A stretch of DNA of 48,618 nt, filler included, from Basidiobolus ranarum (GCA_040143965.1; 2 parts of 2 records of this genome joined end to end with filler, not necessarily neighbours in it), one strand, 5' to 3'. Shown: positions 2,336-28,844, counted from the first letter of the whole stretch. Translations and numbers: made by a program. Notes: generated by a model not told the origin, from the sequence alone.

Positions 2336-4947
2336 TTAGGCACGTTTGACAACGAATGGAGCGGAAGTCCAAGTATCAACATCAGCTGCCTTCTTCTTGT
2401 CACCGAAAGCTCTAAGGCCCTTGATAACAATGGTGTAGGTACCGGATGGAGCTTGTACTTCCTTGGCTTCACCATTGACGACAACGGTGATTTCACCATC
2501 AAATTTGATGCTAGTGGTGGTACCTGGGTAGTTGCGATTAATTCCGCCCTCGCTCAAAGTGATTGCACCTACTTCCTTACCCTTGGTATCAGCCAAGACA
2601 ACAGATAGGAATTTGGTAGGATGAATCAAGGGGAATTGGATGAGAGGAATATCGTTGCCAACTAGGGTATACTCCTTCTTAGGAACGCGAGTAGTGAAAT
2701 CCACAACTACTGGTGCTTTCTCACCCTTAAGATCGAGTACCTTACGGCTATGATGATCACCAGCGATTCCAGAGTATGGAACACGTACAACATTTCCTTT
2801 GTTGTTCAATGGTTTGAATTGAACGTATCCAGAGTAAACCCAGAAATCTTTTTTGTCGAAACGAGGTGGGGTCAAAGTCACTTTAACCTTTCTGCTTTGT
2901 CCTGGACGAACTGTAACAGTGGATGGAGTGGCCTTAGCAGAAGCTCCAGCTCCGGAGAATACGAAAGCATTTTGAAGAACTGGGTGACCATCGTTATCAT
3001 AACCATTTACTGAGACAGCAGGGTAGTGATCAATGGCATAGGTAACAGATCTCTTACTCTTGTTTTCAACAGTCAAAGTGTGAACACCATTGAAATGAAC
3101 GGTATCATTCAAAGCAAACTTGGATGGGGTAACGAAAGTATCAGTATGAATGGCATCCCAGACGTTGAGTATACCAGCACCCTGCTTAGCAGCCGAGGTG
3201 ATTCCCTTGAAGTTCAACTCTCTAACTGGGTTTGCGGTATTTTGAAGAACAGAGCGGACAGTGAGAGGGGCAATCTTTCCCTTAGCCTTCAAGTAAAGGG
3301 CAACTGATCCTGCGGTATAAGGAGCAGCCATAGAGGTACCACGTAAATGGGCATAAGCACCTTTAGCAACTGGGTAGGTGGAGTAAATGATACCACCTGG
3401 AGCTCCAACATCAGGCTTGAAGTTGAGCTCGAAATCGGTACCCCATGCTGTGAATGAAGAGGGCTTTCCACCATTAGGGTTGTTGTAAAGCTTATGCTCG
3501 GGATCGAAAGAGATGGTGAGCTTCTGATTCTTCTCATAGAGTGCATTTAAGTAAGCAGCATCACTTGCTTGAAGACCCAACAAAGGAATCTTGAGATTAG
3601 GATCCATAGATGTTGGAACGTAAGCACCGAATGTAGTAGAGTAGACGAAAGCAGCAACTGCTCCAGCTTTTTGTGCATTGATTCCCTTCACGACCAAATC
3701 ACATGTCTCAGCCTTGAAATAAAGGACAACCTTACCAGTAAGGTCTTCCTTCAAAGGAGTACAACCACCAGTTTGGGCAATGACGAAGGAGGCATTCTTA
3801 ATGCCCACTGCTTTCAAGCCTTCGTAACCAGCAACAAAATCCTTACCCTTGTCTTCATTGATAGTGAATGCTTGACCAGGATACTGGATGTTATCAAATG
3901 AAGCAATAGAAATGGCCTTGTTAGCGGTAGATGGTCTCCCAACAGTCCAAAGACCGTTCATACCATCATTACCAGCAGAAATGACTGGAACAACGCCAGC
4001 TTCTGCGGCTTTGTTAATAGCTCTGGTGATTGGGTCATTAGGGAATGGAAGAGGACTGCCCAAAGAAAGATTAATAACATCCATCTTATCAACAACAGAC
4101 TTTTCAATGGCCTTAATGATCATATCACTTGGAGCCCCACCAGTGCATCCGAACACTTTGTAAGCACCCAAGGTGACCTTAGGTGCAACACCTACGAAAT
4201 TTTTATCATTGGCACCGATAATACCAGCTACGTGTGTTCCGTGACCAGCACAATCTTTAGGGTCCTCATCACCTTTGAGGGAGCCTAGGGTTCCGTCGTA
4301 TTTATCTCCAACGAAATCGTATCCATATTGAACACGGCAATCTTTGCCCTTGAAGCAGCCACCGAGAGCAGGATGGCTATAATCAATACCAGTATCAATC
4401 ACACCGACTCTGATGCCTTCACCAGTGTTCTTAAGGATATTTTGAACCTTTTCAACACCGGTAATAATGTGAGGGGAGGCAATAAGATTAGGAGGTAAGC
4501 TTCCAGTACCGACGATTTTTTCTTGGTCAGCAGAAATACTCTTTACGTGTTGAGTCTAAGATATATGTAAAGTCAGTATGAATTCAAATTTTGTACCATC
4601 TTAAGATTTATACTTACAATTGGCCAGATTGCCTTGACACCTTCAAAGGAAGCCAAGTAATCAACATATTCAACGCCTACGTTCAATGAGATTCCGTTGA
4701 AGGAATCGGTAAAAGTGGTACGTTCATGGAATTCAATTCCTTCTTTCTTCAAACCAGCGCGAAGTTTCTCTTGAACGTTCTCGCCGCCTTCGTGGAATTC
4801 CACGATGTATGCATGGGGAACAACACTAGTGGAAGTTCCTTCACCAAAGCCAGCGGGGAGAGTTTTTAAAACCCCGTTAGGTCTACCACCAAGGGCACTG
4901 TCGGCCAAGAGAAGAGCGGATAAAAGGAAAAGTTGTTGCAATCTCAT
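2336..4947 (-). CDS. Secreted subtilisin-like S8 serine protease with propeptide, PA insert and C-terminal Fn3-like domain (Vpr/pyrolysin/Pr1C type); exons 4947-4618 and 4555-2336
   Basis: Signal peptide MRLQQLFLLSALLLADSALG. Catalytic motifs VGVIDTGIDY (Asp), GHGTHVAG (His), GTSMAAP (Ser), oxyanion SAGNDG. Intron 4556-4617 (GTAAGT...CTGAC...TAG) joins the two ORFs in frame (IWPI|TQHVK). Confidence 0.95.
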
Positions 4948-6542: not shown

Positions 6543-8137
6543 ATGACCGAAGCAAAACTTACCAAACGTAAGCGTGAACTTAAAGAGGAGTTGGTGAACG
6601 AACCTACGACCTCTACTTCTAAAACCGACTTTAAGAGTAAGAAATTAGTGGAAAAACGTCTAGATTTTTGGAATGACCGGGTGAAACCGGTCTTTTTGGT
6701 CTTTATTTTCATTTTTATTTCTTGGTTTTATTTCACTAGTAATAGTAAAGTACAAGGTAATAAGCATATATATGGCTCGGTTTTACTTTAGGAAATATTA
6801 AAAGTTTATTTTTGGCTTCTCTCTCTTTATTAAATAGACTGCAAAAGGGAATATGTCTCCGTAGTAGATGCCGGTTCAACTGGCTCCCGAATCCACGTGT
6901 ACACTTTTGAACGTTGTGGGAGTGAAGTGAAACTACTCGACGAACTATTCGAACAGGTAGAACCTGGTCTTTCAGCATATGCAGAGGACCCACTTAAAGC
7001 TGCTGAGAGTTTGGACAGTTTACTTGATCAAGCCCTAGTAAAAGTACCTAAGCATTTACACAAATGTACCCCAATCACCATCAAAGCCACTGCTGGGTTA
7101 AGATTACTCGGTGAAGAGAAGAGTGAGGAAATCCTAAAAGCAGTAGAGAAAAGAATCACCGAAAAATACCCATTTCCACTTACTAAAGAGGAAGGAGTGG
7201 CTGTACTGGATAGCGCAAAAGAAGGTAATGTGAAGACATTAGATCCTATGCTTGAGGGTAACTGAACAAACCTTGTACATATTTTATAGGTGTTTACGCA
7301 TGGGTTACCGTGAATTATCTACTCAAGAATATTGGCCAACAAGAACGTAAGCATACCGTCGCAATCCTTGATCTAGGTGGTGGCTCGACTCAGATTGTGT
7401 TTGAGCCTACTCTCGATGAAAGTCATTATTTTCCAGAAGAGCATCAGTATAAACTCAAATTTGGACCCCATGAGCACCTACTCTACCAACACAGCCATTT
7501 AGGATATGGTTTAATGGAAGCACGCAAACAAGTCAAATCACTTGTTGCCAAGACGGGTGAATCAAGCCAACTGATTGTCCCTCATCCCTGTCTATTCCCT
7601 CGTACGTCCCAGAAATGGGAATTCCCTACAGAGGCGGGTGAACGTACGGTGACGTTGGTGGGCATTGCGACAGGTGTGGACAAATGTCATGAATTAATGG
7701 AGAAGGTACTTGACAAATCAGTTGAATGTAACGCGCTACCATGTTCATTCAACGGGATTTATCAGCCAAAGCTTACGGAAACCTTTGTCAACCAAGATAT
7801 CTATATATTCTCCTACTTCCATGATATCACTCAACGACTCGGCTTCAAACATATCATTGAATTAGCCGAGTTTCAACTAGCAAACAAAAAGATTTGTGAA
7901 AGAAAATTCTACGAGGAGTTATCGGAGAGTGAGGCAACGAAACTCTTCATGCAACCTGATAGATTCCATGATTGTTTAGATACCTCCTATCTGTTCTCTT
8001 TACTACACCATGCCTATGAGATCCCATTAGATACCCAGTTGAAGGTGGCTAAGAAGATTGACGACATCGAGACAAGCTGGTCGTTGGGAGCTGCTCTAAC
8101 TTTACTCGATGAATATTCCTCCTGTAAAGAGATCTAG
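6543..8137 (+). CDS. GDA1: GDA1/CD39-family nucleoside diphosphatase (Golgi GDPase-like, type II membrane protein); exons 6543-6756, 6838-7224, 7290-8137
   Basis: N-terminal TM segment VFLVFIFIFISWFYF. After splicing all apyrase conserved regions appear: DAGSTGSR, ATAGLR, EGVYAWVTVNY, DLGGGSTQ, SWSLG. Both introns are GT-AG and keep frame. Confidence 0.9.
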
Positions 8138-8615: not shown

Positions 8616-9686
8616 CTAGTATTGAGCACCTTGGTTGGGGTTATCATAACCAGCGGGTTGGTTGAATTCACCATTGTAAGGTTGTTGTTGTTGTTGTTGC
8701 TGTTGGCCGTAGGATTGTCCATAGCCTCCTGGTCCGTGACTGAAGGATTGGTTACCATAACCGTAGCCGGCTCCACCGAAGCCACCTTGGTTACCGAAGT
8801 TTTGTTGACCTCCATATGATTGTGGGTATTGACCGTAACCGGCTTGACCACCGTATCCAGAGGGTTGGTATTGACCATAGCCACCTTGGGCCATATGACC
8901 ATATCCAGCTAATAAACGAATTGGATCAACATTGGAAGACTGTACATAGAGAATATCATTATAGTATACATACCTGGTGTACCGTAACCAGCAAACTTGT
9001 TGTAGCCACTGAGAATAGTAGATTATTAACTGAATGGCTCATAAATTGCGATCAAATGTTCAACACTAACCCTGCGAAACCACCCTTGGAGAAGTTAGGA
9101 GCACCACGAACAGAGCCACCGTTGGGGCCTGAAACGTTAGCAGCTTGCATACCCTTAGGTCCTTGAACTAAATCATATTCGACTTCTTCACCCTGATGTG
9201 TGCTGTCAGCAAATATTGATATTGAAGTAGAGAAGCAAAGAAGAAAATACCTCGCCGAGACTCTTAAAACCACCGTCGTTATGAATAGCGCTATGGTGTA
9301 CGAAAACTACAATAAAACAACTGATCAGTCACAAGAAACTTGAATTGTATGGTGTGGTGTGAGAGTAAGCTAAGAAGTGTTGTTTGGTACTACTCTTTCG
9401 TCCATCATAGGTCGTTAAAATATAGTAACAAACTCACGACTTGTTGAGTTGTATGTCTTTCTGTTTCTCAACTTCACAAAAGCATCTGGTGTGTTTACAT
9501 CAGGGGCTTCCAAACAACAGATGCTTCGCGAATAGAACATAACAACCATACTGTAGGGGGTGGGATAAGTAAAATATACGTACTTTCGGTAGTTCCGGTT
9601 TCAGCAGCATCATCAGGGATGATGAAACCATAACCCTTTTGACAGTTGAAGAACTTGACGCGACCAGTTTTACGATCAGAGGACAT
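8616..9686 (-). CDS. Cold-shock-domain RNA-binding protein with G/Y/Q-rich low-complexity tail; exons 9686-9584, 9306-9251, 9192-9071, 9008-8974, 8908-8616
   Basis: Spliced product MSSDRKTGRVKFFNCQKGYGFIIPDD...[42 protein letters not shown] contains RNP1 (KGYGFI) and RNP2 (IFVHH). Four GT-AG introns keep frame into the GGYGQ-rich last exon. Confidence 0.92.
8681..8705. repeat. (GTT)n/(CAA)n microsatellite encoding a poly-Gln tract in the cold-shock protein
   Basis: gttgttgttgttgttgttgctgttg; the minus-strand frame reads QQQQQQQQ. Confidence 0.85.
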
Positions 9687-10650
9687 ATTCTAAATTTTTG
9701 GTTATCCCAGATTGAAAGATCACGGAAAACACACAAGATTCAACAACGTTGTACAGAGCGAAAAAAAAGAGAGCGAGAGACAGAGATGGAGAATAACAAG
9801 TTAATACACAAGATACTACCAAAACAATCACAAATACAAAAAAATATACTGACAAGAAATTGACAAAGTCACCAAAATGGAACTAAATAAAACACAAAAA
9901 ACAAAAAAGAAAAACGGAACGAGGGAATCCAAGGTGAACTTGGAGAATAAATTAAAAAAAAGGAGAAATTCCAACCCTTGTTAAGATTTTTTTCGACAAT
10001 TTGTCACGAAAAAATTTTATTCCCTCTGATGATTTACGATCATAGAATTTAATCATGAGGATGCGTTGTTTAGCTTGGATTTTGTTGATGATCCGCTGAT
10101 CCATTGAGTTTAGCCTCTTGAATCCCATTTATGTAATAACACCCATTCAAACTTGCATGGAAGAAACAGCCAATCATGTTCCGTATTCTGACTCTAGTCG
10201 CATCTCATAATTGGCCAAATAATATAGGAATATCCTGCTTTTTAATCGAACAATTACGTAGTGGCAATCACACTATCACGTAATGCCCAAGTACATAACA
10301 GGTCAGTTAATAGATCCATAGGCGCTAACCCTAACCCTGATTTGTACGCGTCAATCGTTTCTGTCATCCTGACGACGATTAATGAGCACTCATTTGTGTA
10401 CAAACTTATATCAATGTAGATCTAATCTTGATTATACAAGGAAGTGCAGACATATAACATCGATACTTGGTGTTAGCAGCTTAAGAGCAATTTGGATTTA
10501 ATAATTTTTACAGGACAAATGTCTCCAACTTGATTCGAAGTGTCTAGCCTTGAATAAATTCAACGTGCTTCCACAAGAAAACTAAAGTACAGAATAAATA
10601 CTATAGGGTGATTAAAAAGAACAATACTCAGTTCCTGTACATAAGTTAGT

Positions 10651-13600
10651 CTAGTCTATTTCGATAATGGGTTGAGTTTTTCTTTTCTTTAAAGGACTAT
10701 GAGGTGAATGAGTGCGAGATACATCGTTCACAGCAATAAGGGTCCAGAGATAGTGAATATAGACACCGTTGACAGGATCGAGGGCCTTTATACTCGTTAT
10801 CGAGGCTTCAACAGAATCTCGAGAGAAGGTGCCAAAAGGGATTGCTTCAATATCCGCAATGACGGTATTTGTAAGTGTTTTCGTCCAATGTTCAATAGTC
10901 TGTTGAACTGAGGTGATAATCACTTTTGGGTAATAATACACAGATGACAGGCTACATAATTGTTGCATAAAACTCAAGTAAGACTGAACGATATTGTCAA
11001 AGAAAAACTGGGCGACATATTTCAGCTTAATTTGTCCAAAGTCTTTCTCTAACTTAGATAGTAGAATTAGTGTGAGCTGTAAGTATAGGTTTCGACTAAG
11101 GCCTGCGGGTAAGGATATTTTGGAGTGAAGAGAGTGGTTAGAATACCATTCCAGTGAAAGAGTTCTTAAGACTTTTGGCTGTGAGGTGAGGAGACCTAAT
11201 GCGAGTTCTTTGTAAAAAGTAAGTTTGAATGTTGTTAAATCCGAGAAAGTGGTATCTCCGAATACAAGTGAGGCAAAGGTTATTCCAAGGTTGAAAAGAT
11301 CCCCGGAGAGAAGTCGAATCATTTTTCGTATGCATATTTCATAGAACATACAAACAAATACTTCGTTTGAGCCACTCTCTGGATAAACAAGTAGATTGCA
11401 ATCATTTAACCTAAAATATGAAAGAAGCCCGGACAAGCCCTTTACAATCCTTGTTGCCTGATCGTCGTCATCCGAGATTGCTGAGTTTAAAAGATCTTCA
11501 ATATAGCAATGAACAGTACATGCAAGCATGTAAGGGTCTTTGCAAATCAGAATCGAAGTGTTAGGAGGTTGTTCACTTTATGATACAGTTAGATTCAATT
11601 GAAATGTTAGAGAGGTCAATTTGTGAGAAAAGGTCAATCGCATACCATGTGTAGTTGTCAACTATCGATGCTGCGAACTTCTGAAGTTGACTATTGACGG
11701 AATTGATACTGAGATTATGCACTCGACAACAAATTGACTCTCCCAGTTGACCATCATACGAGTGAGCGTGTAATGTCATGAAGAAGGTAGGGCAAAATCT
11801 ATAAAATTGCTACAAACACAAAGGGTTAATGATATCCTTGTAAAAGTTCCATAAATGCAAACCAACTTCAAAACAACAAGAGTTTTCATCTAAATGTGCA
11901 AGAAATTGTTTTAAATCCAGCTGAACGAATTCTACCCATGCAGGATCATTCATTAGGTCGCTTATGGAGAAACAGAGTTCTATCCATGTGGCGATATCTT
12001 GCATTTGATGTCTAGTTGCGGTACAATTGATAAGCCCACCAGAGATGATATCGTTGTAAGAAAGATCAAGGAGGCGCTTTAAGGTTTGGAAGTATACGCT
12101 CATAAATTGAGTGTTCTAAAAATAGGTTCAGATATTCAGAAGTCAGTATGTAGAATCAATAAAGGAAAGACTTACCATATCAATGGTAATATGATTTCCA
12201 AAGAAATTACTTCCCATATCGATAGCTTGTAGCTCTCGAATCAAACATCTCCGGGCCCAATCTGCTGGTTTGGAGGGTACGTGATATCCATTTTGGGAGT
12301 CCTGTGGCTTATCCAGGTAAGATGTCGACAGTTTTCTTAGTATTGGTACAATATGATTGAAATTTAATGGATGGCCCTCCATAGGTATTTCAATGACACG
12401 TTGTATTAATGACTTAGTTTCGCATTGTTGTAAATCGAGAAGATAGACCATTTCTTTGCGAAGAATATATGACAGAATATCGGAACCTAGGCGTTGAGCA
12501 GCTGATATCAAGTGGTCACCTGTAGTACTCTCAAGTTTACCGTATTGATCATAGTATTTACACAGAATCATATTGTCGACGTGCTCTAATAGACGGATTA
12601 ATTCGATACGAGCAAAAGAGTATTTGTGAATTTCACTTCTAATTGGTATTTACCTATAATTGTTTGGCTATTGGAGGATCTTATCAACTCCCAAGTCATC
12701 CACGAGAATAGATCTGGTTGGCGGTATACTATAGGGAGGTCGGCAATCAATGCTCGTATTTTTGAGTCAACCCATTTATCACGCACAGATTCAGCTTTTG
12801 GAAAAGATTGTTTGTTTTCAAGTTCATAAGCAACTTTCCATACGAACTCTCTGGGTATGAGGTCTACAAGAATATCAATTAACTTCACGAGGGTAGGGTT
12901 ACTAATAATGTTGGAAGTTACTTGAATCCTGGGGACAAAGTTGCTCACTGTACGCGACTACTTGTTGATTTTCTGGCTGTTTTAAAAAGGTATCAGACTC
13001 GAGCGACAAAATCAAAAGTTCAAGATTCTTTTGCGGCTGATTGCTAAAAATTTCAAAACCAACAGCAATAACGTAACAAAGTATTGTCAAAAGTGGGTCT
13101 GTATTTAGCTTTCTGGGAAATTGGCCGTGAACATATATCCCGAAGAGCGCCTTCAAAGGTGTTAAAGTGTTGAGAGTGTTGCAGGACGGTGTTTTGGAGC
13201 CGACAGAAGCAATGTGTATGTCAAGACATGATATGTTGATGAATCCAGAGGTTGTAGGATCGCAACTGTTGGGTTTCCAAACCTCCAAGATTATGCATAC
13301 TAGGGCTACAATCAAACAATCATCATTTGAAAGGACAGTTGAGCTGGAATAGATTGATTGATATAGATTCAAATAAATGAACGGGTGGAGAAACTTAAAA
13401 TGTCTCAAGATATCCAAAAAGGCAATTAAATATTTAGCTGTGACGTTCTTTGCCTTTTTTGTCAATATGTTCTGAAGAAGTAATTGGATCACATTCATCA
13501 ACAAAGTCGTCAAGGAATTTGGAATTTTACTACGGCTCAGTGGTTTACACGCGTTTTCATAAAGTTCATGGGATCTAGGGTCATAAATTAATGAATCGGT

Positions 13601-16359
13601 AACATGCATGGATGCGCTATTGTTATTAGTATGATGATTTTGCTCTTCAGATGGGAGATCCAAAAGCACAGCTATAGCCGTTTTGATTTCGTCGATTTTT
13701 TCATTCAGTTTCAAATTATCCAAGTTGAAATCTGTGCAATCTTCGATGTTGTTTAACAGTGTTCCAACTAAACGCTCAAGATTCTTAAAAACCATTTCCT
13801 TGGATATTTCTGGTTGTGTGATTACCAGGGTTTTCACAGGTGATTCATCGGATGAGGCAAGGTCTATAGTGACTGGTGACTTGTCATTTTGAGGTTGCTT
13901 AGTGCTTTCATTCTTCACAGTTTGGGCGAGCTCTAATTTTTTCTGCCGTTTTCTTTCCAAATAACCATCATATATTTTCTTGGCTATTTTCCCGTTTTTA
14001 TACAAGTTTTCTACAAACGATGCTCGAATAGTTGGTGATATAGTCCCAGATACTTCTTCTTCAAGAGGCTCACCATACATCAGATCTGGGAGAAAAGTAT
14101 TTATGTACCAGCGGTTACGAAATACTATGGCCTCCAATAATGCTTGAGGAATACGTGAAGATAACGAGAAAGACACAAGCAGTTTTTCTAGTGATAGTAC
14201 GTGACTGCTTTGCGTGGGTATAGATTGCGGTAGAGTATTTTTGTTCAATTGAATAGATTCCTAAACGCGGTAATGAAGTTGAAGTAGGGGCGTTGCAGTA
14301 GAAATAATGTTAGGAAAACTTACTCCCATATCTAAGAGTCGTGTTTTGAGAAGGGTTATGTAGTCATTGACAATCGACCGCCAACGAGGAAATCCTGAAA
14401 AGGAGTGCAAATTAAGCTAACAGTACATTAGATTTTGGTGAGTGAAAGTCAAAAAAGTACAATATATAATATTCACCTGTAGCATTTTGCTTGATTGGTA
14501 TGGTACCATGTTACTCAAAGTAGAAAATAGAAATTGAGCTTTTCGTTTGGTAGAAAGTATGTTCACATCTTCACGGATGATATTTCGCTTTGATAGAAAA
14601 AAATTAAGGCTATATTGCAAATAAAACGGATACTTCTAGCATCTCTTCTTAAATACCTGTATCCAAATTCGATAGCCGTTTATATGTCTAAATGCCTTTT
14701 CATTCTCTGCTAACCAAGCAAAGGTTAAAACTAGAATCAGCAAATTGGTGTCATATCGTTCTATCGAATTTTCCAAATAATCAGTCAGAGTCTCGAGTAC
14801 TCCACTCTTAGAAAAAGGGTCGAATGAACAAAAGGTGCGGATCAGAGCGAAAACACATGTCAATTCAGAAAATGTCTAGAGAAATCAAGGTCAGAGAAAA
14901 CAAGTTTGGGTAATCTTGACTGTAGCCTACACATACTGATAGATGTCTCCCAATTGAAATAATGCTGTTGATCACTGCGATATTATGATCAGGTACTGGA
15001 ATGCTAGAGTCTCTGTAGGCTTCAAACATTTTCAGAAGAGTAACGAATAGTGGACGGCGATATTCGTATGATGCACTATTATCTTCACAACAAAATATCA
15101 ATGTTATTGGAAATTAAATGGTACGATTGAATGCTATGAATAATATCAACTACCACTATACAACATATTGACCGAGTCTCCACAGACCTTAATATAGTCT
15201 GGCTGGGGCTTTCCATTTAGCTCGTCTAAGGAACATGGCGCTCTGCAGCATATACGCGTAACCTCTCGTATAAAGATATCTTGGACAGCGAGGGAGGTTC
15301 TTATTTCCTCTAAGGCAAATGTATTCTGAATTATGAAATCCAGCGTATATTGATAAACTGAAATTTTCGGAGCATCGATACTTGAATGAAATAAACGTTT
15401 AGAATTGTCAACAGTAAAGTTAGCTGATCGTTAGACCTTTACCTCCAATTCAAGAAGTTGTTGATGTCTTGTTCAAGGATACTGTGAAATATCTGCTCAA
15501 TGAATTTCATGTGCCGAAAGCTGTAACTCTCTCTTTCATTTTCACTTGCGAGAGAGAGATTAATGATTCTTAGGGCACTTTTTAAGAAATCTAGTATATA
15601 CAAGGTAGTATTATGAGAGATTAATATGAAGGAGACCGTGGCTTTTATTCGAGATAAAGACTGACCATCGAAAACTTCGTTCGCTTGTAATTGTCCATCT
15701 GTGGTTAAAACCATTTCTTTCAAATCATGGACAATGAATTGCTCGACTGATATCAATTGCTCAAATATCATTTCCTCTGACATAACGCCAGGAAGTTGTG
15801 TTCTAAGGCAATACAATAAAGAAAGAATACATATCTGAGATGAAAGGTTTTCCTCGGTCCGCCGTTCCCTACCTTGTCCGTACGAATTGAGCAATACGCC
15901 CATAAAGCGTTTCATATCAAATTCTGCTTCTGCGGTGAGCTTCTTTATCACACCACAGATAGTCTCAAACTATATTAAAGAATAGGTTCGTAAATTTCAC
16001 TAACAGGATCTAGAAATTAAATACAAACTATAATGTACCTGATCACTGGTATCGCATTTCAATAGCCAACGAGCCATTTCGCGCGCAACATATCGAGCAA
16101 AAGGTATCCCAAGATATTGGGCTTCTACCTTGAGCTTTACGCTCACTTGTTCAATATTACATGCTTTAAACACCAAAATCAAATTTAAAAATAATCCCTT
16201 CCTATTTATCAAATTTTCTTTAGAAGTACCTTCTATTTTTCCAAGATTTTTTAACAGAAAGATATTTTGTGCAAGGTAATGATTTTCTTCAAAGACTAAA
16301 GATTCAAAGTCTTCGTCATCCTCAAGATCGTTAATGATTTCGTTATATCTCTCTAACAT
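10651..16359 (-). CDS. FANCA: Large multi-exon (about 13 exons) alpha-helical protein, Fanconi anaemia complementation group A-like; start codon and some exon borders approximate
   Basis: Chain of same-strand ORFs; the junctions inspected can be bridged by GT-AG introns. Consecutive exons give GYRIWIQ...STKRKAQFLFSTLSNMVPYQSSKMLQ...WRSIVNDYITLLKTRLLDMG...RIPQALLEAIVFRNRWYINTFLPDLM...IRASFVENLYKNGKIAKKIYDGYLE. This is collinear with vertebrate FANCA as I recall it (SYADWF...[25 protein letters not shown]...YRSLLTDYISLAKTRLADL...[25 protein letters not shown]...RVAFIESLKRADKIP). C-terminal NLS-like PLKKRK. Confidence 0.75.
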
Positions 16360-16435
16360 CAATTGCGGAGTATTGAAACAAACCAACGATCATGGTGAAT
16401 TATATGTTTGAATGTTAGTGTATTTTTATTAATCT

Positions 16436-16446
16436 TTCACGTGACC
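16436..16446. promoter_or_regulatory. Palindromic E-box TCACGTGA(C) in the ~240-bp divergent intergenic region between the FANCA-like gene and ATG12
   Basis: ttcacgtgacc at 16436-16446, about 150 bp upstream of the ATG12 start and about 80 bp upstream of the FANCA-like start. Confidence 0.4.
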
Positions 16447-16596
16447 TTTGTTACTTCCAATTTGATTATTGTTCAGATGAGTTTTAAAAGCCACATTATC
16501 CTACCATGAGCAGCACAAACAATTTTTACAATTCACAAACAGTGGCATTTTAAAGAGTAGTATACCTGGCGAGGATAGCAAAAAGAAGTTATAATT

Positions 16597-17283
16597 ATGA
16601 GCTTTCAAAACACATCATCCGATGTCGAGGCTCCGGTATCACCAACTATTAATAATGACACGGATTCCACTTCCCCTATTAATGCCAACTACCCTACTCA
16701 AAATGTTTCTTTTACGGATCCATTAGCTCAATACAAAAAAAAAGACACAACGAAAGGTAATTATTTTTTACTACTATCTGATAAATATACCACACTCCAA
16801 AAGTTCAAAACTAAAGTTGACTTAATTTTCTCTTGGACTAGTGGTTGTTCGGTTTCGAGCTATAGGAAACGCGCCGATTTTGCGACAAACCTTGTACAAA
16901 ATCACTGCTTCCCATAAATTTCAGACTGTCATTATGTTTCTCCGTAAGGAACTCAAATACAAGGGTACCGAACCTTTGGTAACATTAGTCTTCACATAAT
17001 TCGTATTTCAGTGTATCAATCACTCCAAGATTTAACTGACTTGAATCCTTCCAAATTAAGTTTATGTACATAAATAGTGCTTTCTCACCCGCCCCAGACG
17101 AATTGGTATCTAATTTATACAAGGTAAGCCATTAGAGAGGGCTGTTGAGTCATGTTGAGTTTAAACATACAATTGAATTGAACTCGGTTATTAGCATATT
17201 ACTAAGTATACTTAATTCCATAGTCATTCAGTGTAGATGGCCAACTCATCATCAATTATTGCACTACTGCCGCCTGGGGATAA
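16597..17283 (+). CDS. ATG12: Ubiquitin-like autophagy protein Atg12; exons 16597-16756, 16842-16978, 17061-17123, 17224-17283
   Basis: Only exon 1 appears in the ORF track. Splicing gives ...KKDTTKVVVRFRAIGNAPILRQTLYKITASHKFQTVIMFLRKELKYKGTEPLFMYINSAFSPAPDELVSNLYKSFSVDGQLIINYCTTAAWG*, with the diagnostic AIGNAPIL, YINSAFSPAPD and C-terminal AWG conjugation glycine. Confidence 0.96.
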
Positions 17284-17747: not shown

Positions 17748-20203
17748 CTAGCGCTTGAGATTCTCCATCATTTCACGAAGCACAGATGTTGCCTTATTAA
17801 TGTTTTTTCCAAGCTTAGCTGATACCGGAATAATTTGATGCTCAACGATCGACTGGAAATGTTCAAAATTTCCTTTGGCTACATTGGAAATGTCAGCTTT
17901 GTTTCCGATAATAAGTGAAGGGCGTTTTGTCAATCCCGGCTTGTAGAGCTCCAATTCGCTACGAAGTAGATTCAAATCATTCCATGGAGCTTCTTTCGAA
18001 AGATCAATCACGTAAACCAATATATTGCTACGCTCAATATGGCGTAGAAAAGAGTTACCAAGGCCCATATTTTGATGGGCCCCCTCAACCAGTCCTGGGA
18101 TATCAGCCATGGTTATCCTGTAGAAGTCAGGATATTGAACAGTTCCAACACAAGGATTCACAGTAGTGAAGGGATATGGGCCAACTTTAGGATAGGCATT
18201 CGAAATTGATCTCAAGAAGGTGGATTTCCCCGCATTAGGAAGACCAACAAGACCGGCGTCAGCAATGGTTTTTAACTCCAATTCCAAACAACGAACTTGA
18301 CCACGAAGTCCTTTGGTCGCAAATTTGGGATGTTTGTTTTCCTTGTTAGCAAAATATGGATTACCAAAACCACCCTGTCCACCGTAACATAATAAATGTT
18401 TCTGGCCATCGACCTCAAAATCTAACTCACGTTTCTCTTGGCGATGAGGAGAGGTAAATGGATACACAATATCCGTGAATTTGTTGTTCAAGTTCTTTTT
18501 TGTCCATCCTGGATAGTGGATAAAGTAGTCGTTTTTAGCCTCTGAAAACTCCTCATTTTCGTTGGGAAGGTCAACTTCACGAACCACAGTACCAACAGGA
18601 ACTCGAATTATAACATCTGCTCCGGATTTTCCTTCTTGTGCTCTAGCTTTTCCATTGAAGCCTCGTCTTCCATGGATTTTCAGACTTACAGAGCTTAACG
18701 AAGCCAGATCTTTAGTGGCCTCAAAATATATCGATCCACCTTGACCACCATCTCCTCCATCAGCCGTTATTTTAAGGCCGTGCTTAGCTTTAAGGAAGCT
18801 GACGCAGCCATCTCCACCATAACCTCCCGCGACCAAGACTTGTTTAAAGTCACAATAGTCTGCTACCTACGAGGAGTTAGATAATCATTAGAAATCAGAG
18901 AGGAATACGACTTCTAGAAGTATATAGTTACCTTGTTATCAGTATATCGAAGCCTTTCTCGTTCAGTTCTTTGCCCAGCTATAGCTTCGGTTTGATTTAC
19001 AACATTGGGTTGAGAGCTAAGGGCAGCAGAGTCATATTCAACATATTTCTTTGGATTTTTCGGACTGTAATCATCGTTCTCAACCTCATAGTTCCTTAAT
19101 GCCTTCCTGGATTTTCGTGATGATTTTTCTGACTCATCTAGATATAATAGCTTTTCATCTACCTCGGCTCGAAATGTTGGCAGATCTGATTTGTTCATAT
19201 TTGAACGTCGCTCTCTAGCCACCCTTTCTAGCTGACTTCTATTTCTTTGCAGTTGATCGACAGTCACATTCTCATCGATATACAAGTCATTCATTAATCG
19301 ATGTGGATTGCTGTTTAGTTTTTGAAGTAACCGACTAAAAGTTCGCTGCTCTACATATTCCAGATCGATATCTTCTAAAATCACTTTCTTGTCAGTGCTA
19401 GAGTTTTGGGCCCATCGTGAATATGTTAAACCCGGAATATAGTCGCCTAGGTCGCCTTTTTTGGTCTCAAACTGGAAATCATACTTATTTACCGGCTTGG
19501 CTGCTACCACATTTTCGAATTCAATCCTTTCGTCGATCTCTGTGATATCATGCTTTAGCTTCTGTAAGTTGGCCGGTTTGATGCTTCTTTTATATTTGAC
19601 ATCATCATCCTCAAAAATCAATCTCTCACCACACTCTAGGCTAGTATCAAGGCCAGTCGAGTCATCAAAGTCAACACTATTCTCCGAAAAATTTTTATCG
19701 AATTCTATACTTTCATTTTCAATATTTGATAATTCGTCTAATGGTACAATATGCTTATCTCTCCCCACTATCTCGTAATCTGATTCATTAGTGTGAATGT
19801 TCATAGTGTCTGATGCATGTTGACGCTGTTCAATTTCGAAACCCAAATCTTTCTCTCGATAATTGTCGCCATATTTTGACCGAGTCTGAATTCGCCTAGG
19901 GCTGCAACTGACAGAATTTGAGGAGTCGGTACAGTCTCGATACATATCATTTGAGTTGAACTCTTCTTCGTAAATATCTGTATCGTTATCCCAACCATTT
20001 ACAAATGCTCTAAGTTCAGCTTTATCGATATCAAACACACTGCGCGGCTTTTTTGTTGGAGATTTCAAAGAAACTTCAGTAGCAAAGGAAGGCTGTGCAG
20101 AAAGCAATCTGCAGAAGACAGTTGAGTTTCTCTTCAACGGGTGAGTTACTTTAGAACACAAGCCCAACCGGTCCAGTTGAATAAAGCGTCTTATTGGAAA
20201 CAT
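17748..20203 (-). CDS. MTG2: Obg/CgtA-family GTPase, mitochondrial MTG2-like, with long N-terminal extension; exons 20203-18932 and 18866-17748
   Basis: Gly-rich Obg fold (GGYGGDGCVSF, GGDGGQGG, GGQGGFGN), LELKTIADAGLVGLPNAGKST (G1), YPFTT (G2), DIPG (G3), NKAD (G4), SAK (G5). Intron 18867-18931 (GTAACT...CTAAC...TAG) fuses the upstream ORF in frame. The Arg/Ser/Leu-rich N-terminus resembles a mitochondrial presequence. Confidence 0.88.
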
Positions 20204-21061
20204 TGATATGCCCAGCTGTAAAGATTGGTGCTTATTTAGTGAACTGGATATCACGTTTAGTAATTTTCTCGATTAATCTTCTTAACTGATGGCCAAAGTA
20301 TATAATATATATAATATAGTCCAGTTGATATCTTTAGCGAGTGTAATGATAAAAATCATATTTATTGCTACACTAGGAAAAATACGCCGATGTAATTCTG
20401 AAGCTGACAGCAAATATTTTCATGATTTATCAATGATCGATACAAATCATTTTATACAGTAATCAATATTTTTGACAAGCGAATGGGACAAAAGACCACA
20501 ACAAAAGCTCAAGCAATAGGCACATGTTGGCTTCAAGCGACTCCAATACCTGTAATGAATATACATACCATGTGATTTCTTTATATTGAGAATTATGCCA
20601 CTGTTGGCCAAAAATTGTCTGCTCTTTTTTCTGCATGTTCTGCGTAAGCTTGAACTCAGAACTCCATGTCAACTCGATTTGATGGAGTCATTACCTTACG
20701 TGGTGTTTTAGTGCCAATCGTGCTAATACCTGGGGAACACACAAATGATGCATAATATAAACGTAATATTGTGCCAAATATCCAAGTTTATATGCGACTT
20801 TCCAAGTGAATTATGTCAATTGGTTGGTCGTTATTCATTGGTCAGAACAACTCTAATAAATTTATTATTACGAGTGGATCATTGAACCCCTTACTTTTTA
20901 TTTGTATTCACTTGTTTCGTTATCTAAATTCATCTATTGCCTTTTTGTTATATTATACATATACATTTACGAGTCTTTACTGGTGTGTTACTGCGAGTTC
21001 ATTTCGTTGACATCTTGACTCAGTAATTTTCCTTTAGACAAATATATTTACACCCTTTTAA

Positions 21062-24000
21062 ATGTCGACTGCCGATAAACGGCTCAATTCCAAAGGCCAG
21101 GTAGATGATGGACCTATCCCATTTTTCGGAAATTCTGGTGGTGATACCGATTTGTTTGGGTCTTTGGTGAGCAGTCAACCATCTACTCAACCTACTCAAC
21201 CTAATGGCTGGCAAAACCCCTCATATAATGATAAAGCCTCTATTCCTCCGCGTAGTAATTCCACCGCTCCGGTTACTCAGTCTGCAGTAAGTCAACCTTT
21301 CTCACCACAGTATCCTACACCCCAACGCCCCAAAACCACCGATCCTTCTGTTGGCCAAGGCTCTGAAAATGTCAGTTCTTTTTTTGACAATTATTCAGCT
21401 ACACAAAACGTGACTGCTGAGCCTTCTAGGCAAAGTCAAGGCTTTTTGAATTCGGCTCAAAATTCTCAGGATGCTTCTTTCTTCGATAATCCCAATTATG
21501 GTCAACAAATTCAGGGTCACGAAGTGCAAGCTCAGAGTCCTTCATCATATAATGCTTATCAGCCACAATCGTATGCAGACTCTAGTACTCAACAATATGA
21601 GGCTGGTTCTAAGGATGCTGACTGGTATACCCAAAATGGTTATCAACAAAATGCAGGGTATCAAGGTGTGGAGGGAGCCTATGCACAGCAGCCTCAATAT
21701 CAAGAAAACTATACTGGATATCAGCAAACAGCTGGACATGATTATGGTGCATACAATGAAAACTATTATGAGGGTTACGATCAACAGTTGGCTAGCCAAC
21801 AAGACCCATCGGCAGCGGGTTATTATAGTCATGGTCAGGAATATTCAGACCCTAACTATGTCGATCCAAATGCTGAATACCAGAACCAAGGATATACCGA
21901 AGGATACGGGTACGATTATACTCAAGGATATGACTATAATTCTTCAGCATACGACCCAGCTTATGCTGATTATTATCAACAACAAGGCTACGAGGGCCAG
22001 TACGCTGAAGGAGGTGAAGGGTATATTCAACCGGTAGGAGAAGCAGTAGCTGCAGTTGATTCATCTAATTCTCATTACCATCAACAATCTACATACACAC
22101 ATCCTACCCAGGTGGCAGAAAGTTCACCAAATTACCAGGGACAAGAAATGGCGGAAACCCAAAACTATACCGATCCAGGTGCCTTTTTTGAATCGTTCCC
22201 AGCAGATCAAAATCAGGCTCATTATGAGCAAGATTATTCCTTACCTGAATCTTCCAATGGTTATCTAGGAGAGGAAGCATACAGCCCGCTATCTTTCCAA
22301 GACCAAACTGTCCCGGATAGCCCTGCTGTTGCGTTGATTAATCCAAGCGAGGAGCCAGAGATTTCTAAACAGCCCAACAAAGGCGCTAATGAGATTCAGC
22401 CTCAAGGTCAGTACATATCTGATTTCACAAAGGGATCAGATGTTTCAAATACCAACGACACTCAAGAACATTCAGTTCCTGATGATGAAGTAAGTATCGT
22501 CAAAGATAACTCGGATATATTCGAGACTGCCGAAGATCCCGTAATCAAGCAAGTAGTCCATGAGGAACCCAAGGGGAATGACAAGAAACCTCCAGTTACA
22601 AAACCATTGGAGCAAGTTGATAATAGTGATCCTTTAGGGCAAACAGAGGACATCGATATCAATGACCCTTCATTGTTTGATACTGCCGCCGATATGTTGA
22701 GTAGTTTTGTCGGAGGAGCCTCATATACAAGTGATAAACCGGAGTCTCCTAAATCACATGATGACCAACGTAGTTCTTTCGAGCAAAGTCATTCCCAATC
22801 TGATAACTTAGATGATTTGGATGATTTGGTATTGGGCTCAACATCAAGCCTTCAGGACACAGGTTCACTTGAAAAGACTAAGGAATTAACATCTGAATCT
22901 CCATATGGATTTGATACCATAATCAGAGGAGAAGCTAGTCCAGATATAGTATCTTTACCGTCTGATCATGGTTCAGATCATGTGTCCATTGAGGGAAATA
23001 GTACACAGCAGACTAGCAATCAGAAAGTCGAGGCTAAATCAGATGTTATCTCCGATATTGAGTCGATAATCAAATCGCCTGAATCTTCCGTTGAACAATC
23101 ACCTCCAGCCTCCACTGAGAGTATTTCACTAAAGGAGACTGATGCTAAAGGTGACGAGCATGTTAAGAAAGAGGAGAGCGTTGAATACAATTCAGAGGCT
23201 GGTAATAACCCACTTGGCCTTAGTAATCTGGATGTTAAGAGTGATGTCTCCTTTAGTCAAGATAAGGATGAATCATCTAAGGAACTTTCTACTGGTCTTG
23301 CTCAACCAAATCATAATGCCCAATTCTTTGATGATATCGTAAGTTCTTCTGCTGAAGACCAACTCAAAGCTGTGGAATTACCATTGGATCAAGATTCCCA
23401 AAGCAATCTCAACTCTCATGAGCAAGATTCTATCAACGATGGTGTACAACTTGGTAATGACCTACACCAGTTGCCGATTGAAACTAGTTCTGACGTTTTG
23501 AAATTACCTCATGACACTCAGGATCTTACTGTTGTTAACCAGGAGAGTTCGGGAATTACAAATGATGCTGGAGATGAGGTTTTGACGGAAGCCAATTACC
23601 AAAATCAGGAAGCAAATGAATCTAAGTATCCTGAACAAGGAGAAATGGCAGAGCCTGAGGTTGAAATTGAGCAGAAGCCTATAGAAAAGGATCCTTTTGA
23701 GTTTGGTGGCGTCGTAGCAGTTGACGAGAGCGCTGCTAATGATGCGCAAGAGTCTTCCCAGAACGAAGAGATGTTCAGTCCCAATCATGATGATGTAGAA
23801 CAGTACCATGTAAATACTGATCTTAAACTTGAGAACGATGCATCTGATGCTATTCCAGAACATGCTTCGGATGCTCAGACCCATTATCATCAGAACTCTT
23901 ACGGAGTAACAGAGTATTATCAAAATAATCAAGCCAATAATCTTAAATCAGAACAGCACGAAGAAACCCCGGAAATGAATACTCAGCAAGCTTCCGAAAA

Positions 24001-24283
24001 TGGTCAGCATCTGGACTCAAATAATGACTTAGCTAAGAATCAGAGCTCATGGGAAGAAGTACACAGTTATCGCCAAGAGTATGACTTCAATGAGGTTCCT
24101 ATTGAGCATGAGGGGCAAATGACATCTCCCTCAAGAGAAGAGCCCATAAATACGGATTCAATGAATACCCAAGCCCCATGGGAAGGTACACCAGATTACT
24201 ATAACGAAGACCAGCATGGTTACAATCAAGAAAATAATACTTCTCACGATTACCAACACCACGGCTCTAGTGATATACATTAT
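21062..24283 (+). CDS. N-terminal ~1074 aa of a large intrinsically disordered Q/Y/S/D/E-rich protein, possibly the COPII scaffold Sec16; truncated by the assembly gap
   Basis: Uninterrupted 3.2-kb ORF, so almost certainly coding. Low complexity, with recurring S/A-FFD motifs, a Tyr/Gln-rich block and LDDLDDLVLG. The Sec16 identity is inferred from composition only; no folded domain is visible before the gap. Confidence 0.5.
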
Positions 24284-24383
24284 NNNNNNNNNNNNNNNNN
24301 NNNNNNNNNNNNNNNNNNNNNNNNNNNTTAATTAATTAANNNNNNNNNNNNNNNNNNNNNNNNNNNNNNNNNNNNNNNNNNNN
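24284..24383. other. Scaffold gap: 100-nt N spacer containing an artificial TTAATTAATTAA six-frame stop linker (24328-24339)
   Basis: 44 N + TTAATTAATTAA + 44 N, symmetric padding typical of an assembly/annotation linker. Confidence 0.95.
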
Positions 24384-25942: not shown

Positions 25943-27905
25943 AGTTGAAAGGAGTGTTATTCCTATTCTTGTAATCTGTCATCTCATATTATTTTTAAAG
26001 GTAAAGCACCATCTACTTGTCCTAAAAAAGTAAGCAGAGTGTCTAACTTTAATTCTCAGATCGTCTCTTTTTAGAGTAAAATACTGTATTGCAAACGATA
26101 GGCGCGAAACCAGAAAGTCAGACTCCAATTATGACTTGCCCACTTATTGGCTGATTACAGATCGCGAGAATAATCCAGCGGATGCTCAATAAACTGATCT
26201 CAGCTGCTCACAAATATGGTTTCCTGGGAAAACGACTGGGCCCTCATTGGTGTGGATCATGATGTATGGAAGTCAAGAACCTTATCGATGATTTCATATC
26301 AACCGATATGAATGGAATTAGATTTCATACCTGATTCTGGTTCCCGACGATGTTTGAATCGAAATAACACTATAGCCTGCTAGCTCTATCGTCGATACCA
26401 ATATAGCAAAAACCAGTAAGGCGATCAAGTAGGTGTGAAGAGCAACGCTTGTAAATTTATCTGCGGATGTCGGAAATATAAACTGGATTTTACTTCAACA
26501 ATTGAGGACGCAAAGCAGGATGCATGCCCTAGTTGGCTCTCACATAGTCTAGGTATTCTATCATCAACGCATCTGCAAACCATGACTTGTCCCTTGCGCG
26601 TAACATATCCTTCGGAATACATACCCGATTGGTGATACTTTGAGAGGCTTCTCTTCTTCCCTAGAGTCTTGACCGTTCGTCCTTCGAGAGAAAACCTCGA
26701 CTTGAATTTGAAACTGGACTACGCAGGATCGGTCAATGCATCTGCTTCGTAGTTCGCGCCTAGATGGTGTTTTGGACGGCTCTAAGGACTATAGAAATAG
26801 GAGCTAGTAAATATAAACTAGACCTGAGAGAAGGTTGCTAAGATGGCTCATTTGCATTCCAGGATTGTTTATCCGGTGACTACCATCTTCCACGACACTA
26901 GCCCCTCAATCATCTCATGGCCACAGAAAAGCATGAACAAGTTTACCGATGAGTTCATCATTTTGCTCGAATATGCCTATCAAGTCAATTAGACATTATC
27001 TCCATTGTTTCCTCATAAAGAAGGTATTTCTGTACCATTACCTAATCAAGTAATAGTTTAGGTCATTCTCCTGGGCTATTTTCCCTCCAACGTGTAAACA
27101 TTGATGCATGGCAATTTGCTCATTAAAAAACAAGCCTAAGGTTGAATGAATAGGTGTTTAAGGAAGCCGCATCAGAAAAGCGCATTTTTGGAGCGTGAAT
27201 TATACATTTATATATACATATCTATAGACAAATCCCACTCCAACCATATACATCTTTTCAATATGTTGCTAGCCTGTACACTAACCTCCAATCTGATCAT
27301 ACCGATTCCCGAGAACGATACACAGTCGGAAGATCTCCTCATTGCCAAGCCACACCATTGACATTGTTACCTAATCACCCCATGCGGCTTGTCATTTATG
27401 GGAGAATGATGAAACAGCTGTTGTCGGTAAAATAGATACAGTTCTCTTCTGGGGAATAAAACCAGAAACGCGGATATCCCACCTTATTTTGAAAGCAGAA
27501 GTGTAACTATTTTTATCGGTAGTGGTTGATTCCATGCCATGACGGCAGCCGGGCTTTCCTTTCCGTCAACAAGGAAAAACTTTCCTTTTCGATAAATTAC
27601 TTTTCAACTGCTCAAAGTATGACAAACCTAAAGTTTGCCTCCAAGTTGATTGTTACGAAGGTTAAATCCCACATTCAACCGGCAAAGTCCCTGTTGAGTA
27701 CGTTTTTAATTATAAATACAAAACTATCATTGGATTACTAAGGAATAATCTCATCAGGTACCAAGGTCAAATGGGTCGATTTCTTAGGGTTAGATTTCTT
27801 GAATAAAAGTAATACAGGATTGTCTAAATTCTCTCGAAAATATAAAACCGGGGCATCTTCCAAAGTTTCCTGGATACTTTGAATCGAATATTTTGTGTTG
27901 ACTAT

Positions 27906-28844
27906 ATGGAACCGCAAACAAGTAATCCCACTAATAAAAGACAGTGGACTTTGCCTTCTTTGGTTGGTCTTCCAGTCACTTCCGCTCCTTCCAGCAATAA
28001 TATAGGCTTATCTCTTCAATTTCAGGCTAGCAACGCATTTCCGGATATTGGAAGGTCATTGACACAAAGAACGTACTCTTACTGCATTGTGCCGGAAGGT
28101 TATTGTTCAATATTGGTACCACAGGCTCATTGTAAGAATATGCATCACTTTCTCCTTAACAAACACAACGATAGTACTGTTAAAGCATCCACGTCATCCT
28201 CTTCTACGGAAACCAAGAAACCGGTGACTACACCAGAGAAACGACCACCTCGGCCTTTAAATCCATTTTTGCTGTTTCGTAGAGATAAACAAGCTGAGAT
28301 ATTTAACAAGTATCAGGGTATTTCCAATTCCCAAGTCTCCCAAATACTAGGCCGTATGTGGAAAAGTGCGTCCAATGAAGAGAAGGAAAAGTATCAAAGC
28401 ATGGCTGAAGAATCTCGAAAACTGCATAAGCAAAAATATCCCAATTATAAATATTACGCGGACAATTCCAAACAGAAAAATAAGAAACCAGAGATCGTCA
28501 ATCAGCAACCTCTATCTATTCATGCTAATAGTAGTAAGAACTCTTGCCATTTTCTTCAAACTCAAGCTAGCGAGGATTACATGACTGAAAAGAATCCATT
28601 AGATATGAATACTTGGTTTACATTTGAGCCTCAGATGGATCTGTATCTCGACAATAATCATAGCTCTACTCTTTTACAATCAATAGCTCACTCTGTAACC
28701 GCTCCTAACGATGAACCTACACCATTTTACGAAGATTTGTTTGCAACTGGCATAGATTCCTCAGCTTCAACTACAAACAGTGTACAGGTTCCATACTCTG
28801 ATCTAAGCCATCAAATGGAGCAATTCAATCATAATTATGAATAA
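27906..28844 (+). CDS. Sequence-specific HMG-box transcription factor (MATA_HMG/SOX-TCF type), single exon
   Basis: RPPRPLNPFLLFRRDKQAEIFNKYQGISNSQVSQILGRMWKSASNEEKEKYQSMAEESRKLHKQKYPNYKY. First ATG at 27906; TATAAAA at 27841. Confidence 0.92.
   Translation: MEPQTSNPTNKRQWTLPSLVGLPVTSAPSSNNIGLSLQFQASNAFPDIGRSLTQRTYSYCIVPEGYCSILVPQAHCKNMHHFLLNKHNDSTVKASTSSSSTETKKPVTTPEKRPPRPLNPFLLFRRDKQAEIFNKYQGISNSQVSQILGRMWKSASNEEKEKYQSMAEESRKLHKQKYPNYKYYADNSKQKNKKPEIVNQQPLSIHANSSKNSCHFLQTQASEDYMTEKNPLDMNTWFTFEPQMDLYLDNNHSSTLLQSIAHSVTAPNDEPTPFYEDLFATGIDSSASTTNSVQVPYSDLSHQMEQFNHNYE

Follow-up and report, generated by a model that had tools for sequence, protein, structure and literature searches.

The question raised by the locus at positions 10651..16359, minus strand, of a 48,618-nucleotide stretch of DNA from Basidiobolus ranarum (GCA_040143965.1; parts of two records of this genome joined end to end with filler, the whole stretch being referred to below as the window) is whether a fungus carries an intact gene for FANCA. 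Mutations in Fanconi anaemia fall most often in FANCA, a gene long regarded as animal-restricted. An initial annotation, generated from the DNA alone, had proposed a FANCA-like gene of ~5.7 kb with five collinear motif blocks at this locus, and had gone on to suggest an animal-like Fanconi anaemia core complex in a fungus. According to the gene model, the profile searches and the comparisons described below, 10651..16359 is very probably a genuine B. ranarum orthologue of FANCA, the large alpha-solenoid that serves the Fanconi anaemia core complex as a scaffold.

All five motif blocks were present, in the order given by the initial annotation, in stop-to-stop frames of the minus strand (16389..10651). 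The largest frame (12902..14260, 452 amino acids, aa) was submitted to a word-indexed search, and KAK9766422.1 (K7432_004509, 'hypothetical protein', Basidiobolus ranarum, 1599 aa) was retrieved with 100% identity across the frame. KAK9766422.1 was walked along the reverse strand by a script and was matched letter for letter as 15 exons; it is the predicted product of the gene at 10651..16359. The gene and its exons were as follows.

10651..16359, minus strand: whole FANCA-like gene, 15 exons, 4797 coding nt, 1599 aa, with ATG at 16359 and a TAG stop codon at 10653..10651
16230..16359, minus strand: exon 1, 130 nt, encoding the acidic N-terminus (DLEDDEDFE)
16039..16163, minus strand: exon 2, 125 nt, preceded by intron 1, possibly retained
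15666..15969, minus strand: exon 3, 304 nt
15443..15590, minus strand: exon 4, 148 nt, preceded by intron 3, possibly retained
15154..15380, minus strand: exon 5, 227 nt
14937..15082, minus strand: exon 6, 146 nt, with the YRRPLFVTL block, conserved only within Basidiobolus
14657..14875, minus strand: exon 7, 219 nt, in which detectable FANCA similarity begins
14477..14587, minus strand: exon 8, 111 nt, with the FLFSTLSNMVPYQSSKMLQ block, aligned to human FANCA 466-491 and missing from the B. meristosporus gene model
14324..14416, minus strand: exon 9, 93 nt, with the VNDYITLLKTRLLD block
12922..14260, minus strand: exon 10, 1339 nt, aa 502-947, covering the helical domain, a linker with little conservation and an arcN-like region
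12654..12863, minus strand: exon 11, 210 nt
12176..12585, minus strand: exon 12, 410 nt
11867..12115, minus strand: exon 13, 249 nt
11646..11809, minus strand: exon 14, 164 nt
10654..11575, minus strand: exon 15, 922 nt, aa 1292-1599, predicted all-helical, with aa 1301-1450 61% identical to B. meristosporus

All 14 introns were bounded by GT..AG and were 57-75 nt in length; these canonical splice sites and the open frame lend indirect support to a single spliced mRNA. Because 11 of them contain an in-frame stop and one more shifts the frame, removal of 12 of the 14 is obligatory for an open frame, and intron 1 (16164..16229, 66 nt) and intron 3 (15591..15665, 75 nt), both in frame and stop-free, could be retained. 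A missed upstream exon is unlikely, since an in-frame stop lies immediately upstream of the ATG at 16359 and a divergent ATG12-like gene begins ~237 bp away. In KAK9766422.1 the motif blocks occupied aa 319-327 (YRRPLFVTL), 452-470 (FLFSTLSNMVPYQSSKMLQ), 486-499 (VNDYITLLKTRLLD), 538-559 (IPQALLEAIVFRNRWYINTFLP) and 580-593 (RASFVENLYKNGKI). Four of the five were aligned residue by residue with human FANCA (phmmer alignment to 7kzp_A), and YRRPLFVTL, which lies N-terminal to all similarity detected with animal FANCA, was common only to the B. meristosporus protein. The exon map thus reproduced exactly the coordinates proposed by the initial annotation for a multi-exon gene, and its five blocks were recovered on the minus strand, in the order it had stated, in stop-free frames and within an annotated protein.

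Assignment to the FANCA family was based on the following matches within this protein.

14330..14863, minus strand: Pfam Fanconi_A_N (PF15865) match, aa 365-499, exons 7-9 including introns 7 and 8
13955..14191, minus strand: Pfam FANCA_helical (PF24781) match, aa 525-603
13343..14773, minus strand: full extent of profile-profile homology to animal FANCA by hhalign, aa 395-807

Fanconi_A_N was matched at 33 bits against a cutoff of 27 (expectation value, E, 5.8e-8; profile positions 217-351 of 355), and FANCA_helical at 43.4 bits against a cutoff of 28 with the full protein and at 45.3 bits with exon 10 alone. When PDB chain sequences were searched by phmmer, six sequences were listed at E<=1, of which only human FANCA (7kzp_A, 2e-15; query 446-672 on chain 466-691) was significant, the other five being variants of one unrelated protein, MstE (E 0.064-0.21). 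A profile built from the two Basidiobolus proteins gave five rows in the PDB, headed by human FANCA (4.6e-12) and Xenopus FANCA (6lhs_B, 1e-11; query 359-644), the remaining three being FOXM1 (E 1-1.6). Alignment by hhalign of the Basidiobolus pair against five animal sequences scored 98.7% (E 4.4e-16, 344 columns, aa 395-807), and the alignment ended at aa 807, which corresponds to position 652 of the horseshoe-crab protein, ~130 residues into arcN (522-757).

Exon 10, the only part queried against 1,835,955,588 representative proteins, gave four HMMER matches at E<=1e-3, a bar that is harsh at that library size; these were the B. meristosporus protein and three animal proteins (horseshoe crab, scorpion and snail). 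The Tachypleus and Centruroides matches are both named 'Fanconi anemia group A protein homolog', and the Lymnaea match is an unnamed fragment; Fanconi_A_N and FANCA_helical are present in each of the three, and FANCA_arcN as well in the two that are full-length. Identity to the best animal match was 26% over 266 aa (BLASTP, horseshoe-crab FANCA), and was 29-32% over ~110 aa for the HMMER matches. Word-indexed homologue searches with exon 10 (against longer proteins), with aa 360-680 and with a four-sequence alignment returned, among the matches listed, only the two Basidiobolus proteins.

On these alignments, homology specifically to animal FANCA covers the centre of the protein, aa ~360-810, from the end of the N-terminal HEAT domain through the helical subdomain to where the arc starts. 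The check named in the initial annotation, namely a Fanconi_A_N match with reciprocal hits to FANCA only, gave 33 bits against 27, with FANCA as the match both in the PDB and in the 1.84-billion-protein library. Its description of an apparently intact, FANCA-like gene in a fungus likewise held, two Pfam FANCA families being above their cutoffs in an open 15-exon frame of Basidiobolus ranarum. A chance resemblance between helical-repeat proteins was also considered, and was rejected on the E-values (2e-15 to human FANCA) and on the FANCA-only reciprocal matches.

Several results weigh against extending the assignment from the centre to the whole protein or to a Fanconi function. Similarity to animal FANCA was undetected by any method used in aa 1-~360 and ~810-1599, which make up ~70% of the protein. 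Neither FANCA_arcN (PF24783) nor the Fanconi_A family of the C-terminal HEAT repeats, arcC, to which FANCG binds (PF03511 according to Table 1 of PMC11061109), was matched at E<=10, and the PDB profile search matched one central stretch only. A search of the atlas with aa 1100-1599 gave no usable match. AlphaFold2 predicted 44 helices and no strands for aa 654-1599 (946 residues) at a mean predicted local distance difference test (pLDDT) of 45.6 and a predicted template-modelling score (pTM) of 0.32, and an all-helical fold for the last exon (aa 1293-1599) at a mean pLDDT of 46.8 and a pTM of 0.41; the quality of both models is too low for folds to be compared. The low-confidence model of aa 654-1599 gave no Foldseek match in the PDB at E<=1e-3, the top rows being generic solenoids with template-modelling (TM) scores of 0.1-0.2, and the best VIA-align wide match of this model (Z 8.5) lay on a 112-residue helical stretch, a value common for helical models, with no FANCA chain recovered. 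Mucoromycotina FANCA was absent from the E<=1e-3 matches of exon 10 in the 1.84-billion-protein library. Finally, the set of Fanconi partners discussed below comes from the cited parts of a BLASTp-based survey of the sister species (PMC11061109) and not from the B. ranarum genome.

The folding alignments behind these models contained five rows (for the C-terminal 946 residues, with the four available full-length relatives), because three homologue searches had listed only the two Basidiobolus proteins. The first Foldseek row, 7kzt_V (TM 0.16), is a chain of a Fanconi core-ID complex entry and was not counted as evidence; nor was a collinear C-terminal BLASTP match to horseshoe-crab FANCA (aa 1237-1271 against 996-1031), which was non-significant (E 0.64). 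Pfam on the full protein gave nothing besides FANCA_helical and Fanconi_A_N even at E<=10, and no similarity past aa 808 was gained when the two Basidiobolus proteins were searched, filters off, with a hidden Markov model of five animal sequences. For arcN, the want of a Pfam match at E<=10 stands beside an hhalign alignment that nevertheless runs to aa 807. Among language-model look-alikes of aa 1-364, the four top-ranked clusters were Fanconi_A_N families (0.83-0.86), which, being under the 0.9 bar, are taken as a lead only.

The best-surviving alternative, although an improbable one, is that the protein is derived from FANCA and was repurposed, the central module having been inherited and the C-terminal half being lineage-specific, with no role in the Fanconi core complex. 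It would account for the end of animal FANCA similarity at ~aa 807 and for a C-terminal half without Pfam, PDB or atlas signal, and it fits the reported lack of FANCG, FANCC and FANCF in all fungi (cited parts of PMC11061109). However, the protein is similar in length to human FANCA and its conserved centre lies at the same position (446-672 against 466-691), and the C-terminal half is predicted to be all-helical, as an arc solenoid would be. That half is also constrained, being 41-61% identical between the two Basidiobolus species (peak 61% at aa 1301-1450; 72-73% in the FANCA-like core). FANCL, FANCE, FANCM, FANCD2 and UBE2T, moreover, are recorded for the sister species in the supplement of PMC11061109. 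Arthropod FANCA proteins gave no Pfam match past arcN at E<=0.01; C-terminal divergence is therefore normal for the FANCA family, and the missing C-terminal Pfam signal says little either way. Judged from the proteins compared, FANCA outside vertebrates usually has a C-terminal half that sequence comparison does not recognise, and in the cited part of a 2019 domain survey the Fanconi_A domain was scored as a vertebrate acquisition (PMC6792448). The C-terminal ~790 aa are predicted to be all-helical and are conserved within the genus, and a full-length FANCA would be indirectly favoured by a centre equally far from the N-terminus as in human FANCA, by the similar length and by the C-terminal constraint.

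Basidiobolus lives in the gut of amphibians and reptiles and is known for carrying foreign genes. Horizontal acquisition of the gene from an animal, rather than vertical retention, is nevertheless very unlikely. In its favour, all three matches outside Basidiobolus were animals (horseshoe crab, snail and scorpion) with no Mucoromycotina FANCA among them, and Basidiobolus supplies the sole FANCA row outside Mucoromycotina in the supplement of PMC11061109 (one of 23 rows). The missing Mucoromycotina matches are, however, to be read with the harsh E-value bar of a 1.8-billion-protein library and with exon 10 as the sole query, and FANCA is reported in Mucoromycotina in the same source. Identity to the best animal matches (only 26% over 266 aa, or 29-32% over ~110 aa) excludes a recent transfer from an animal host, an ancient one being improbable. 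The gene carries 14 short introns (57-75 nt), and its coding sequence resembles its neighbours both in G+C content at third codon positions (0.372, against 0.317-0.450 in eight neighbouring frames) and in codon frequencies, with a correlation to the pooled neighbours (r=0.77) that exceeds those of each neighbour with the rest (0.44-0.72) partly because the coding sequence is longer. The flanking genes are ordinary fungal housekeeping genes (ATG12, OBG GTPase and GDA1/CD39), and an orthologue with 53-57% identity is present in B. meristosporus. The gene was probably passed down vertically from an ancestor shared by animals and fungi. Least credible of all is a decaying or unexpressed gene with a model only seemingly intact, for which two optional introns and the disagreement of the two Basidiobolus models at several exon borders could be cited, against 1599 codons open over 15 exons with canonical splice sites and conserved blocks along the whole length in comparison with the sister species.

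If the preferred reading, an orthologue of FANCA, is taken further, its role can be considered against what is described for vertebrates. In the relevant sections of Jeong et al. 2020 (PMC7102982) and of Singh et al. 2023 (PMC10085685), FANCA is described as an alpha-solenoid made up of an N-terminal HEAT domain, a helical subdomain and an arc (arcN and arcC). The arc is there said to dimerise through its convex face and to bind single-stranded nucleic acid, and FANCA, FANCG and FAAP20 to form a module that has been proposed to direct the core ubiquitin ligase to chromatin. In the cited parts of PMC11061109, all fungi are without FANCG, FANCC and FANCF; in its supplement, the rows for B. meristosporus include FANCE, FANCL, FANCM, FANCJ, FANCD2, UBE2T, MHF2, FAN1 and others, and no row is given there for FANCI, FANCG, FANCC or FANCF. 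By homology, Basidiobolus FANCA would act as a scaffold that brings the FANCL/UBE2T ubiquitin ligase to stalled forks, leading to monoubiquitination of FANCD2; it may also draw on the single-strand annealing and DNA binding that have been attributed to the arc of FANCA, and would act within a reduced ('minimal') fungal Fanconi set without FANCG. The retention of an 'animal-like FA core complex', as the initial annotation had put it, is not supported in that form: it runs against the published survey, and because of that survey the expression is overstated.

How a FANCA without FANCG might reach the nucleus is suggested by a basic patch.

10678..10689, minus strand: KKRK, aa 1588-1591, eight residues before the C-terminus, a candidate nuclear localisation signal

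KRK occupies the equivalent C-terminal place in B. meristosporus. Runs of at least three K/R residues begin in the B. ranarum protein only at aa 447, 604 and 1588, and its N-terminus is acidic, without a basic cluster. Vertebrate FANCA has an N-terminal nuclear localisation signal (residues 19-28) that is recognised by FANCG, and its nuclear import needs FANCG contacts at both ends together with that signal (PMC7102982, relevant sections). Speculatively, the C-terminal KKRK could serve as a FANCG-independent import signal in place of the N-terminal one. It is conceivable, although rather doubtful, that a near-full-length FANCA without recognisable FANCG or FAAP20 is either autonomous, with its own KKRK import and in an ancestral FANCG-independent state, or accompanied by partners too diverged for BLASTp. 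For hidden partners there is a precedent in plant FANCC, found only by sensitive methods (PMC10085685, in the section cited); if diverged FANCG-like or FAAP20-like partners exist, the core complex would be more animal-like than published. In either case, if true, Basidiobolus would be useful as a microbial model in which to study that module of the Fanconi core complex which is least understood.

Features surrounding the gene in the window were as follows.

16360..16596, no strand assigned: intergenic region of ~237 bp between FANCA and the divergent ATG12-like gene
16597..~17000, plus strand: ATG12-like gene, head to head with FANCA, with a likely start (MSFQNTSS...) at 16597
9495..9689, minus strand: short frame beginning MSSDRKTGRVKFFNCQKGYGFI, with Pfam CSD at 24 bits, under the cutoff of 27, and at profile positions 2-23 only
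7262..8137, plus strand: GDA1/CD39 nucleoside phosphatase, a neighbour not related to the Fanconi pathway
2336..4555, minus strand: subtilase with PA and Fn3-like domains, likewise not Fanconi-related
17748..18866, minus strand: OBG-family GTPase, not Fanconi-related
18914..20272, minus strand: open frame of 452 aa adjoining the OBG GTPase gene, with no Pfam and no PDB sequence match
21062..24331, plus strand: uninterrupted frame of 1089 aa for a large protein, with no Pfam match at E<=0.01 and no PDB sequence match at E<=1e-3
27846..28844, plus strand: HMG-box protein, not Fanconi-related
31296..32315, plus strand: cyclin, not Fanconi-related

Pfam APG12 was matched at 42.3 bits (cutoff 22.8) on the frame 16826..16999. 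Since the ATG12-like start lies ~237 bp from the FANCA ATG, a shared promoter is suggested, and 16360..16596 is probably bidirectional, judging from this arrangement. From its partial profile match, the frame at 9495..9689 is probably the first exon of a gene for a CSD protein directly downstream of FANCA.

Fungal FANCA has already been reported. Of the 23 FANCA rows in the 'neighborhood' sheet of Barua et al. 2024 (PMC11061109), Mucoromycotina account for 22 and B. meristosporus CBS 931.73 for one (ORY08175.1), and expression of FANCA from M. lusitanicus is reported in the same work; its main text never names Basidiobolus (0 occurrences), the listing being in the supplement only. ORY08175.1 bears the UniRef name 'Fanconi anaemia group A protein helical domain-containing protein'. 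The Mucor result is repeated in the cited part of a 2026 review (PMC13451438), and in that of the 2019 domain survey the origin of Fanconi_A_N was placed at the choanoflagellate-animal ancestor (PMC6792448). When Basidiobolus and Fanconi were searched together in full texts, one unrelated abstract book was found, and the B. ranarum gene was undiscussed in the main texts searched, supplements lying outside the scope of that search. The earlier proposal that FANCA predates the animal-fungal split is thus reasonable and was already in print in 2024, and the accompanying caveat that surveys might have noted fungal FANCA was correct, ORY08175.1 being catalogued as FANCA (PMC11061109, supplement). 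Because that survey had catalogued FANCA from the sister species and from Mucor-like fungi, fungal FANCA is already known and the B. ranarum locus confirms known biology. With a fungal orthologue, the origin of FANCA moves back to the ancestor that animals and fungi share, and a microbial system is offered in which the role of FANCA without FANCG can be studied. The additions made here are modest: a gene model more complete than the truncated one of the sister species (1599 aa, with both Pfam cutoffs passed), a functional name for a 'hypothetical protein' record, and two small leads, namely an N-terminus that is acidic in combination with a conserved KKRK near the C-terminus, and an ATG12 gene lying head to head with FANCA.

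Compared with human and Xenopus FANCA (7KZP chain A and 6LHS chain B), the B. ranarum protein is of similar length (1599 aa against chains of 1477 and 1437 residues), and compared with human FANCA it has the same order of parts with the conserved centre in the same position (446-672 against 466-691). Fanconi_A_N and FANCA_helical are above their cutoffs, and the rest is predicted to be all-helical. Unlike them, it has no detectable similarity over its first ~360 and last ~790 aa; it combines an acidic N-terminus with KKRK near the C-terminus, whereas the nuclear localisation signal of vertebrate FANCA is N-terminal, and the vertebrate partner FANCG is the one reported missing from fungi (PMC11061109, parts cited).

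The nearest matches found outside Basidiobolus, from Tachypleus (XP_076321737.1), Centruroides (XP_067121788.1) and Lymnaea (CAL1530652.1), differ from the Basidiobolus protein in a much stronger Fanconi_A_N score (81 to 195 bits, where the Basidiobolus protein reaches 33). In the full-length Tachypleus protein the match takes in Fanconi_A_N positions 12-352 of 355, nearly the entire profile, whereas Basidiobolus covers only the last third, and the two full-length arthropod proteins pass the FANCA_arcN cutoff, whereas Basidiobolus has no arcN Pfam match.

Within the genus, B. meristosporus ORY08175.1 (K493DRAFT_377823) is the orthologue; the two proteins are 57% identical over exon 10 and 53% identical over the length aligned. 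Every motif block covered by the B. meristosporus model is shared, as is the ...KRK...IEID C-terminal ending. This model differs in being 1255 aa long, without the first ~300 aa and without the equivalent of exon 8, where the resemblance to human FANCA is greatest, and is further set apart by short insertions at two exon borders. These differences are probably errors of gene model or annotation, and because of the missing parts the B. meristosporus model falls below the Fanconi_A_N cutoff that B. ranarum passes.

Mucoromycotina FANCA (e.g., Mucor lusitanicus KAF1798128.1 and KAF1798129.1), known here from the published table only (PMC11061109), is alike in being FANCA from early-diverging fungi. 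The fungal FANCA rows in that supplement often cover short spans; a Rhizopus delemar row, for instance, spans 162 bp, and M. lusitanicus is represented by two pieces that adjoin each other. Many of the Mucoromycotina entries may be fragments or split models, and, because many of the tabulated spans are short, the 1599-aa B. ranarum model may rank among the most complete fungal FANCA models.

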